Assembly (NCBI GenBank): GCA_003971905.1
Contig: RSEE01000061.1
Location: 1 to 64,000, forward strand
Source of the DNA: Moniliella sp. 'wahieum'
Lineage: Eukaryota
Length of the DNA stretch: 64,000 bases
Direction of reading: 5' to 3'
The notes under the pieces were generated by a model. It was not told the DNA's origin. It made no database searches and saw nothing but the letters and a program-made list of their open reading frames with translations. A program made the translations under genes and the position numbers. Positions 28,072 to 64,000 of the stretch are shown in pieces. The number at the start of each line of letters is the position of its first letter. The first letter of the stretch is position 1.

Positions 28072-28169
28072 GGAGTAGTGACGCAGCGGTTAGCGTGTGA
28101 GATTGCAACGAGTCGCTTAGGCGGTTCGATATCATCTTGAAGTCGTTGGTTCAAGTCCGACCTACTCCT
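28072..28169 (+). tRNA. tRNA-Cys (GCA) with 25-nt intron at canonical 37/38 position
   Basis: Acceptor stem GGAGTAG/CTACTCC with discriminator T; D arm ACGC/GCGT; anticodon arm TGAGA-TTGCAA[intron 28109-28133]A-TCTTG; T arm GTTGG-TTCAAGT-CCGAC. Confidence 0.93.
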
Positions 28170-57855: not shown

Positions 57856-58649
57856 TTCCCAGCCTGCCCTCAATGATGCATTTGCTCAAACGATTGGGTG
57901 TACTGACCGATCTGTTTATGTCCAGACTCCTTTCTCGTTTCCTTCACGGCCACCCTGTTACTGACGTTGCTCTATTCCGGTAAGTCTTCTCGATCATTTA
58001 GTCATTGACCACTGTTCATCAGGCTTCCCAATGCCCTTATTTGTGCGAATGTTATGGGCTTCAGAAGCATGGCGTGGAATACACTTTGCCACACAGTTTT
58101 GACATAGCTGGGTCCAGTTCAGCACCCTCTCCAGGCGAACCTTCGTCTCGACAGTGGTGTGCCTGTTGTGCTTCAGGAGCGTGGGAGGCTTGACAAATCT
58201 GCGATGCCAGTGAGATCCGAAGTCCGGGTTGTCCTCGAGGGTGGCGCAATCCCACTCGTGGTGGTGGCTGTAGTCTAAGCAAACAACGCCTTCAGAGGAA
58301 CATCAAGCAGCCCGTCGCCACTAGGGGCTTGGCTGCGGAACAAGGAAAACGGATAACTCCTTAGTAGGCCTGAGGAAGGACTGAAGGGACCTTGGGCCAA
58401 AGCACGCTAACGAGCAACCCGCGGTAGCTCAACGTATGCAACTACTAACGCTCTCCTACACGTCGGCCCCTCACCGTGCTCACCTCCCCGCGACCTTTCC
58501 TTGACCACTTCTGGATCCTGCTACAATTGGAACAAAGATCGATCATCTCAATGCGACCAAAAACCCGTCAGACAAGAAACGCTGCGCCACAGAGCACAAG
58601 CGACAATGGCATTGTAGAGTAGAACCAGACAGACACGTCCATCCGGAAC

Positions 58650-59465
58650 AAGGGTGCAAAAATATTCCCTGCCCCCACCCCAAGCCCAAGGGCCGAGGCA
58701 GAAGGCGAGCAAGGCGAGCACGCAGCTCTAACACGGCTAAACGCGAGAGCACTCCCACTCCCCACCTCCCATCACCCGCATGGGAGGCGAAAAGTAAGAG
58801 TGCTGGCGACCACTCAGCCCCGAGGGCGCCGTGCTGCATCCACCGAGCAGGGAGATCAGGAGTCTAAGCCAAGCAGAGGATGAAGGGCAGGCGGCCTTGC
58901 GGCTCCACCTGCCAGCCACCCTGCAAGGCCCTCTGAAGGCACAGTCCACGCTTTAGCTTGTTCCCCACCAAAGGGTTGCCCCCAAGGAGAGAACTTTCTG
59001 GTCGCCGGCCGGCACGACCAGGGGTGCGGACCGAAAACGGCAGCAAAGCTGGAAAGTCGCACCCGATAGACACCTCAAGGCATCAACTGGCAGAGGATAG
59101 GCGTGGCGCGATACCGACATGAATGCCTGGTGCGGTCACTCCCCACCCCCCTACCCAAAAGGCCAAAGCCATGAGCGAGGAATGAGGAGCACGAGGATCG
59201 TCGAACCAAGGAACGTCCCCACAGGGGACGCCACAAGTGGAACGACGCATGCTCGCCGGCTTGCCCGTCCCTAATCCGGTAGAGGAGCGCACCGGCCCGC
59301 AAACCAGACACCCAGGACCAGTCGGCGGCTACGCAATTTGGTTCAACCTTAGGGTTAGGATCGTCTACGCCCCCCGTCGGTCCGCGCCGAAGCGCAGCGC
59401 CAGACGGGGAAGTGCAGATCGATGTGGGTGCCCGACTTGGGAGAAGAGAAGCAAGAGGATGGCGG
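58650..59465 (-). ncRNA. Candidate telomerase RNA (TER)
   Basis: Minus-strand CCUAACCCUAA (59349-59359), complementary to TTAGGG repeats, directly preceded by a long hairpin capped by cUUCGg (59360-59423). Downstream are a pseudoknot (59058-59064/59022-59028 crossed by 59042-59053/58945-58958), an enclosing helix (59428-59463 with 58915-58942), distal multi-stem domains and AUUUUUG at 58657-58663. No credible ORF. 3' end uncertain. Confidence 0.78.
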
Positions 59466-59793
59466 CGCGAACGCGCTTTTATCCTGCTGGCTCCGCCGCG
59501 CAACCAGACCGCCGGACACGCGATGAGGCACGGGGGCGTAGACATGGCGGCCAGCGACGCCAACCCTAGAAATGATTGCGTAATGCACAATAGGGTTGCA
59601 TGCAGTTCCACGTTACCAAGCGTGGCTCCGCGATCATACCATCCGGTAAGGCGATGCTGACGCGCTGACGCATGCGCGACCTGCGCACAGACCGCCTGTC
59701 GGCCTCAGCAAACCACTTGCGCCTTCCCATCTGCGTTTGTGCCGCCACCACCACCTCTTTGTTTCTCGCCAGCGGGGTTACCGCAGTACCACA

Positions 59794-60446
59794 ATGGGCA
59801 AAACCGCATTGATTTTCCTTGCCGACGGCTCGGAGGAGATTGAGTTTACCACCACATATGATGCTGGTGTGCGTAGTCATCTGGCCTGGTGCCCAGCCCT
59901 GCGAGGCGGCCTGTTGACCTCCATAACGTGTCAGTCCGTGCCGGCGTTTCTGTCACGTCCGCTTATGTGGGCAACCGGGGAGTGGATGGCAGAGCAAGAA
60001 GCCGGCTATGCCACCTGCTCGCGTGGGGTTAAGATTGTCCCGACCTCTACCTCACTGATCTGGAGGGCGTAGGGTACGACGCGTACATTGTCCCTGGTGG
60101 AATGCCTGGGGCTGATACGTTGGCGAACACTCGGAGGTGACGGCGTTGCTTAAGGCAGCCTATGATCAGGGGAAGGTGGTCGCCTTTATTGTGCTGGCCC
60201 CCTTGCGGCCAAGGCGGCGGGCATCACGGGCAAGTCTCTCACCTCCCATCCCTCGGTCAAGGCGCAGCTGCAAGGACTTCGTTTACTCAGAACAGCGCGT
60301 GGTCAAGGCGGACAACCTATTACTTCCCGAGGCCCTAGGACCACTTTGAGTTTGCTCTGACAATTGCTGAAGCCCTTGTGGGCAAGGAAAAGCGACAGGA
60401 GATCGTACCGCCCATGATACTCCCACCTGGCTGGCCTGAGGCCTGA
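59794..60446 (+). CDS. DJ-1/PfpI family protein (PARK7/YajL-like)
   Basis: MGKTALIFLADGSEEIEF; CSRGVKIVP; YDAYIVPGGMPGADTL; GKVVAFI(C)AGP (frameshifted); TSHPSVK; YSEQRVV; GPGT-like segment, then FEFALTIAEAL. One intron. Confidence 0.9.
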
Positions 60447-60833
60447 TGGGGTTGGAGACCCCGGAGGGCGCCCATCGACATTTCATGCTTACGTTTTCTG
60501 ATTTTGGTTCCTAGGACTACAAGAAAGTAGGGGAGTGGGATCAATGAGAAAGGGGATTGGTACGGGATGACACGTAGGAAGCAAAGCAGGAAGGTTTGGG
60601 GCAAGCAGGAGGCGCAGGTAAAAAAATTAGGCCGAAGGGTGTTATAACCGGTTTTGCCGTGGCTGTTTGGGGTTGCAGCAACGGGGAGGGCATGGCCACG
60701 AGCACGCGAGGTCTCTGACCCAACTCGAATTGCATCGAGTACATATGAAGGCTAGAGGCTGCAACAAAGAAAACAGAAAAAATGGTTGGCACCTGTTGAA
60801 CGTGTGAAGCGGGCCAACTTGAGGGTACGCTGA

Positions 60834-63752: not shown

Positions 63753-64000
63753 CTTGGCTGCCGCCCCACCAAACAAGTCAAAAATCGAGGAGTCAGTCAG
63801 ACGCTCCAGGAAGCAAAAGTCGTACCTACCGAATCAATTTATGAGCGTCGGCGAGAAGAGTGGCTTGGAGACGTTGGCGGCGTTGGCCCACGCTGCCCAG
63901 CGCGCCTGCTAGGTGGCAGGAGCAGGAAATCTGCTGCGGCAGCCCTGCGCCAGAAGGAGAAAAATAGGGTTGTGCAAATTGGCATGCCGTTTGCGAAGCT

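Follow-up and report, generated by a model that had tools for sequence, protein, structure and literature searches.

A new fungal telomerase RNA, belonging to a smut-lineage fungus, is very probably encoded on the minus strand of the window (the whole 64-kb stretch of DNA that was analysed), and with only slightly less confidence we regard positions 58945 to 59064 as the H-type pseudoknot of its template-pseudoknot core, within an RNA that would be about 777 nt long. The initial annotation had read this stretch as the pseudoknot in the catalytic core of a telomerase RNA (TER), an identification now supported by a template, a boundary hairpin, an Sm-like site, TTAGGG repeats, a TERT gene, contigs of the size of the RNA in relatives and the conservation of the knot strands. 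The order of these elements, their conservation and the presence of both TERT and TTAGGG ends in the genome are observed directly. The knot is of the H-type, lies 3' of the template and combines a U-rich loop 1 with an A-tract in stem 2. In vivo, the RNA would fold into this core and bind TERT, which would copy CCUAACCCUAA into TTAGGG repeats and halt at the hairpin that adjoins the template on its 5' side, a 285-nt arm lying between template and knot.

Crossing stems, loop 1 and their register

Stem 1 (P2b/PK1), announced as GGGUGCG against CGCACCC, was present in the minus-strand pair tables as 59064-59058 with 59028-59022, all seven pairs (7/7) being Watson-Crick. Its 5' strand (59058..59064) is part of a block, 59058-59082, of which 24/25 letters are kept in contigs of distant relatives, and its 3' strand (59022..59028) is unchanged in a second genomic copy of the locus and in the relative X1. 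The loop ACUU was likewise found where claimed (59057-59054). Stem 2 (P3/PK2) had been given as UCCAGCUUUGCU (59053-59042) pairing with AGCUAAAGCGUGGA (58958-58945), and its 12 Watson-Crick pairs do exist, with U58955 and G58949 bulged; its two terminal pairs, however, are doubtful or not kept. U59042-A58958 is a C-A mismatch in the relatives X1 and X4, and at the other end U59053 is more plausible as a third loop U than as a stem base, because a distant relative carries G directly 5' of CCA. Judged from the sequence, loop 1 (59053..59057) is probably ACUUU and not ACUU, offering three Us for three As, and stem 2 would start at C59052; the corresponding loop of the distant relative has 7 nt with UUUC. 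The 5' strand of stem 2 is then CCAGCUUUGC (59043..59052), all 10 letters of which recur in a distant contig's loose end, and its 3' strand (58946..58957) holds the AAA tract and both bulges, the sole listed X4 change being at the bulged G58949. That stem 1, of 7 bp, and a stem 2 of about 10 bp with two bulges form a crossing core seems to us highly likely, while for the exact register of stem 2 the chances are about even.

A detector, its criteria set post hoc, demanded an H-type knot in which the loop contains UU and stem 2 includes UUU/AAA; it gave one match in both strands of the window (128 kb), at 59064, and the same one at all four stringencies. When the 141-nt stretch was shuffled preserving dinucleotides, none of 5000 shuffles fired with stem 1 of at least 7 and stem 2 of at least 10 bp, and 4/5000 did so at 6/8. 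The nested fold of the same stretch (z -2.2) contains stem 1 and the three inserted hairpins, without stem 2, which would add 12.8 kcal/mol (12 bp) or 7.2 kcal/mol (8-bp core) to the nested minimum free energy (MFE) fold, pseudoknot penalty excluded. As the third strand, loop 1 would occupy stem 2's major groove, U59055-U59053 forming putative U.A-U triples with A58954-A58952; should the distal CCA/UGG pairs open, C59052 would possibly come next, on the pair of G58951. TER knots are described as containing 2-5 U.A-U major-groove triples that are required for activity, probably through folding and not through chemistry (text available of PMC7583470).

It is also conceivable, with a probability that we put well below that of the crossing core just described, that the gene is a telomerase RNA with a different knot. 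Stem 2 would then be reduced to its 7-8-bp core, GCUUUGC/GCUAAAGC, and the loop would be ACUUUCCA (8 nt), giving UUUC.AAAG triples, or else the RNA would toggle with nested hairpins until TERT binds. Geometry speaks for the shorter stem, as a loop of 4-5 nt otherwise spans 10-12 bp and two bulges, and so does the lack of conservation of the terminal pairs of stem 2; yet the distant relative keeps CCA before GCUUUGC although its loop gains two letters, and the 12-bp duplex is stronger than the 8-bp core by 5.6 kcal/mol. Toggling would agree with the nested MFE fold, in which stem 2 is missing, and with the human and yeast knots, reported to equilibrate with a two-hairpin form (text available of PMC4338352).

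The knot of the longer stem 2 was compared with its relatives using all 21 differences of X1 and 28 of the 55 of X4, and in these and the second copy no two-sided compensatory change was found in stem 1 or stem 2. The stem cores are invariant in the second copy, which has one substitution in the 120 nt of the knot, and in X1, such invariant pairs being uninformative; one terminal pair is broken and one bulge changed. The first of these changes, U59042C (X1 and X4), disrupts the terminal pair of stem 2 together with a competing hairpin, and the second, G58949C, falls in the bulge. Two nested rivals were discarded, namely 59082-59089/58942-58949, the strongest for the 3' end of stem 2 (pair probability about 0.7), with two pairs broken in X1 and X4, and the competing CAGC-UUU-GCUG hairpin, with one pair broken in both. 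Two-sided changes do occur elsewhere in the RNA, at 59243-59203 in X1 and 58910-58889 in X4, and several predicted non-knot pairs are broken, particularly in the area of 59150-59178, whose indels render the alignment uncertain. In the distant contigs the 5' strands of the stems are visible and the 3' strands lie outside the visible part. The loose end of one of them reads from the 7-nt loop with UUUC into an unchanged stem-2 5' strand and then into at least 13 differing letters, among which the stem-1 3' strand does not appear; since all three are seen there, the U-run of the loop, the 5' strand of stem 2 and the junction insert persist amid diverged sequence.

Inserted hairpins and other conserved elements

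The three hairpins described by the initial annotation as inserted into the knot were all recovered in the minus-strand pair tables. That they are real and variable helices is borne out by two pairs that go from G-U to A-U, by a loop indel of 4 nt and, in a distant relative, by 45 extra nt in this region. Hairpin A in loop 3 (58998..59021), CUGGUCG/CGACCAG, has 7/7 pairs, and its loop holds the 4-nt indel found in the second copy, X1, X2 and X4. Hairpin B (58960..58994), also in loop 3, is GUUCUC..GGG-GCAA-CCC..GGGAAC with a GCAA tetraloop; both G-U to A-U changes (X1/X2) fall in it, and one C-G pair is broken in the second copy. The third, GCCG-UUUU-CGGU (59029..59042, hairpin proper 59041-59030), sits at the junction between stem 1 and stem 2, where the distant relative has at least 13 other letters after stem 2. 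All three would be variable insertions directed away from the triple helix.

Two of the three have a precedent, because the knot of Neurospora crassa, a member of the Pezizomycotina (PK1, PK2, PK2.1), also has a helix inserted in the downstream loop (text available of PMC3592445); the hairpin between the stems is the unusual insertion. In comparison with N. crassa, the RNA described here has two loop-3 hairpins and a 14-nt hairpin-forming junction insert, and the canonical P6.1 with 4-bp stem and 5-nt loop was not found. At the stem junction, vertebrate and non-yeast knots are described as having no unpaired residues and those of budding yeasts as having several (PMC3592445, in the same text). 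A hairpin at this place was not found in other TER knots in a literature search that included the available text of PMC4993307, Ustilago and Malassezia being represented by their main texts.

Outside the knot, the arm leading to it from the template contains a conserved block (59244..59273, minus strand; 26/30 letters kept in distant contigs) that may be a protein site. Next to it, the local pair 59243-59203 is the one that goes from G-C to A-U in X1. A 23-nt long-range helix, 59250-59272 with 58689-58711, is also possible and would compete with the local helix; U58696C (X1 and X4) would convert one of its G-U pairs to G-C. On the other side of the knot there is an invariant GCAA-capped hairpin (58890..58910, minus strand; 21/21 in a distant contig), with the pair 58910-58889 changed from A-U to U-A in X4 and broken in X1. 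This hairpin is as conserved as the template block, and a counterpart was not found in the TER literature surveyed.

The region 58715..58834 (minus strand) folds and is a candidate CR4/5 domain, with a P6-like hairpin of 25 bp (58748-58804), in which four of the listed X4 changes keep pairs and one breaks a pair. The candidate P6.1 (58723-58739) has a 4-bp stem and a 9-nt loop ending in UUAGA, a U-G of the stem being U-A in X4; the canonical P6.1 (4-bp stem, 5-nt NUNGN loop) had no match in 58950-58652. No consistent partner was found for a helix enclosing the core; about 5 nt only lie 5' of the boundary hairpin.

Template, telomere ends and extent of the RNA

The template CCUAACCCUAA (59349..59359, minus strand, 11 nt) represents about 1.5-2 repeats complementary to the host's own TTAGGG telomere repeat. 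It is the only match of at least 10 nt to (CCCTAA)n in the window, and lies 285 nt 5' of the knot on the same strand, inside a block (59342-59367) kept in 26/26 letters in distant relatives. It is unpaired in the full-length centroid and can also pair back onto its 3' flank (UAACC/GGUUG). On its own, the template motif CTAACCCTAA is common, with 269 matches in 69.5 Mb. A template-boundary hairpin of the yeast/fungal type is predicted at 59360..59423 (minus strand) by both MFE and centroid and would end at the base that adjoins the template; CGGACCGA is kept in the loose ends of three distant contigs. Further upstream, the 12 nt of 59543-59532 are fully complementary to 59374-59363, and 59568-59555 shows partial complementarity to the template; in the MFE fold of an extended transcript this upstream sequence is unpaired. 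Self-inhibition of a precursor by such a leader is not supported, the local boundary hairpin being retained in the fold that includes the leader.

Short TTAGGG arrays are found in the genome assembly (69.5 Mb, 223 contigs), mostly at contig ends. These arrays have 2-6 repeats only and are often joined to unrelated sequence; genome-wide, (TTAGGG)x4 had 14 matches and the reversed control (GGGATT)x4 had 58, pointing to an interstitial GGGATT repeat family. We fetched 28 telomeric contig ends, 16 of which have arrays stopping at CCCTAA, and in this post hoc test, some of whose flanks are related, the following base was G in 13/16, A in 3 and T in 0 (local null 0.43, p=0.002; internal sites 3/12). 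The G-followed ends continued as GG in 8/13 cases. The bias is what a template 3' flank CCCUAA-GG would favour in chromosome healing and is taken as supporting evidence only, the test being weakened because at other contig ends the CCCTA and CCCT phases are likewise followed by G.

The cognate TERT is represented by PF12009 matches at two loci whose homologues are TERTs. The best named matches among 8000 candidates scored were to Tilletia (44% over 86% of the query), Thecaphora (41%) and Ustilaginales (36-47%), and in a FastTree phylogeny of 16 sequences this TERT has a long branch that does not fall within the Ustilaginales clade and is a loose neighbour of Tilletia (support 0.88). The host is therefore a member of the Ustilaginomycotina outside the Ustilaginales.

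The putative mature RNA (58652..59428, minus strand) is delimited by contigs of relatives that come from four public runs (a single study of unrecorded library type), mapped on 58200-60500, and such contigs do not prove ends, level or strand. Those of X1 (776 nt, 21 differences) and X4 (773 nt, 55 differences) both cover exactly 58652-59428; contigs stop at 59428 in 4/4 runs and reach and stop at 58652 in 2/4. Within the intergenic gap nothing else is matched by the relatives' contigs, the other listed pieces being neighbouring genes at low depth. This pattern resembles that of an abundant discrete RNA, which we take as a hint. Another hint, that the runs are RNA, comes from a relative's contig in which the neighbouring DJ-1 gene runs on with its first intron missing; another, near-identical contig retains the intron. 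Contigs of more distant relatives (about 728-790 nt) match in short blocks only, i.e., the template, 59244-59273, 59058-59082 and 58890-58910. A metagenome scan with a 19-nt template block gave 0 matches. Loci with the knot-strand pattern (at least 119) were all taken as chance matches and not as orthologues, since among the 119 listed the template was upstream in 0, and one had both 3' strands loosely, without the UU loop.

The second, syntenic copy, on C3, is 96% identical and differs by 10 substitutions in the 777 nt of the RNA, against 15/366 and 9/262 in the flanks. The full-length fold is stronger on the minus strand (z -4.9) than on the plus strand (-2.8). Near the 3' end there is an Sm-like site, AUUUUUG (58657..58663, minus strand), the only AU4-6G match in 59428-58601 and about 5-6 nt before the contig end, and the RNA's 3' end would probably be set by an Sm ring.

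Could this be some other structured non-coding RNA of the Sm class that has nothing to do with telomerase and in which a template-like motif arose by chance? The non-canonical P6.1 loop and the highly conserved GCAA hairpin without a counterpart in the surveyed TER literature would fit such an RNA. However, the longest invariant block in the distant relatives is precisely the template (26/26), the elements follow each other in the order boundary, template, knot, stem-terminus and Sm site, and there is no match to any Rfam snRNA or snoRNA, so we consider this very improbable. Rfam matches over the window at gathering score were limited to a tRNA, and the locus itself gave three at E 4-6.5, none relevant. 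Still less probable is that there is no RNA gene at all and that a telobox in the DJ-1 promoter coincides with helices that arose by chance, either in intergenic DNA rich in GC or in the convergent gene's 3' UTR: the template motif does lie about 435 nt upstream of DJ-1, near other telobox-like motifs, and has 269 copies genome-wide, but the knot detector fired in 0/5000 shuffles, substitution density is below that of the flanks, the relatives' gap contigs are confined to 58652-59428, and compensatory and G-U-type changes accompany a stronger minus-strand fold.

Genomic setting and known telomerase RNAs

The telomerase RNA gene seems to stand alone and not inside a protein-coding mRNA. No same-strand protein-coding host gene was found directly upstream, where the neighbour is a divergent, frameshifted DJ-1/PfpI-like gene (59795..60445, plus strand; PF01965, matching the syntenic copy on C3) starting about 370 nt from the RNA 5' end. 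Emi1-like PF11326 matches and the NDK genes sit on other contigs. A coding reading of the locus itself was discarded, as translated frames over the RNA (10 and 80 translations) had no Pfam match; minus-strand frames of at least 75 aa across the gap had none either, a very short or spliced ORF being able to escape such a search. The frameshifts differ in position between the DJ-1-like gene and both TERT copies, and probably point to assembly indel errors, typical of long reads.

The consensus of Tbf1 is TAGGGTTGG. In the gap between the RNA and DJ-1 there is an inverted pair of telobox-like TAGGGTTG motifs (59561..59598, at 59561-59568 and 59591-59598), which are two of six matches in the window, with 1.6 expected in total, and may belong to the promoter. 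Tbf1 is described as binding yeast snoRNA promoters (text available of PMC6410037). The RNA would probably be transcribed from its own putative promoter, which DJ-1 would share in a head-to-head arrangement. Another TAGGGTTG copy is found at 63965, upstream of rpS13.

A literature search retrieved basidiomycete TERs only for smuts around the Ustilaginales and, putatively, for Malassezia, and none for the RNA described here. One of them, UmTER/ter1 of Ustilago maydis, shares with it the template core UAACCCUAA, a template-adjacent boundary, the layout with T/PK and distal CR4/5, and TTAGGG telomeres (texts available of PMC9564094 and PMC10035886). UmTER also has an Sm-like AUUUUU, 9 nt before its 3' end and not about 5-6 nt as here, but it is 1291 nt long and is cut from the Emi1 mRNA, in contrast to an RNA of about 777 nt without Emi1 upstream (PMC9564094, in the same text). 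The TERT of this host, unlike that of Ustilago, falls outside the Ustilaginales clade. The putative TER of Malassezia resembles the RNA described here in having three Us in a U-rich loop 1, both U-A and C-G pairs in stem 2, an Sm-like site and additional helices that separate template and knot (text available of PMC12506658). That candidate is about 480 nt long and was proposed to derive from NDK1 read-through (PMC12506658, same text), whereas here the RNA has 777 nt and NDK lies elsewhere in a 69.5-Mb genome. NDK has at least four near-identical copies in this assembly, which suggests a hybrid or polyploid genome. As for the triple helices of human and Kluyveromyces lactis, they have a parallel pyrimidine third strand on an A-tract, as would be the case here, with 3 U.A-U triples in human and 5 plus C.G-C in K. 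lactis (text available of PMC7583470). In comparison with both, the triples of our RNA are putative, and its A-tract is 2-3 pairs and a bulge away from the junction.

We give slightly less than an even chance to the joint proposal that this is a third architecture among basidiomycete TERs, combining a knot tolerant of a junction hairpin, a stand-alone Sm-class RNA transcribed from a telobox-marked promoter, and Gs flanking the template that extend primer alignment. If it were true, coaxial stacking of the stems would be unnecessary for the triple helix, the mRNA-derived biogenesis of Ustilago and Malassezia would not be common to all smut-lineage fungi, and the unpaired Gs 3' of the template would mark healed chromosome ends with a CC-TTAGGG signature. 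The locus adds a compact TER that represents a separate branch and for which there are candidate ends and, in public runs, several orthologues. This renders testable both the tolerance of the catalytic knot to insertions at its junction and the generality of mRNA-derived TER biogenesis in Ustilaginomycotina, and provides a seed for covariance models with which the TERs of the rest of the subphylum could be sought.

Two further features of the window may be mentioned. An intron-containing tRNA gene (28072-28169, plus strand) is its only Rfam match, and on the far side of the RNA a convergent gene at about 57900-58390 (plus strand), without a Pfam match, has a last exon conserved in the relatives' low-depth contigs.
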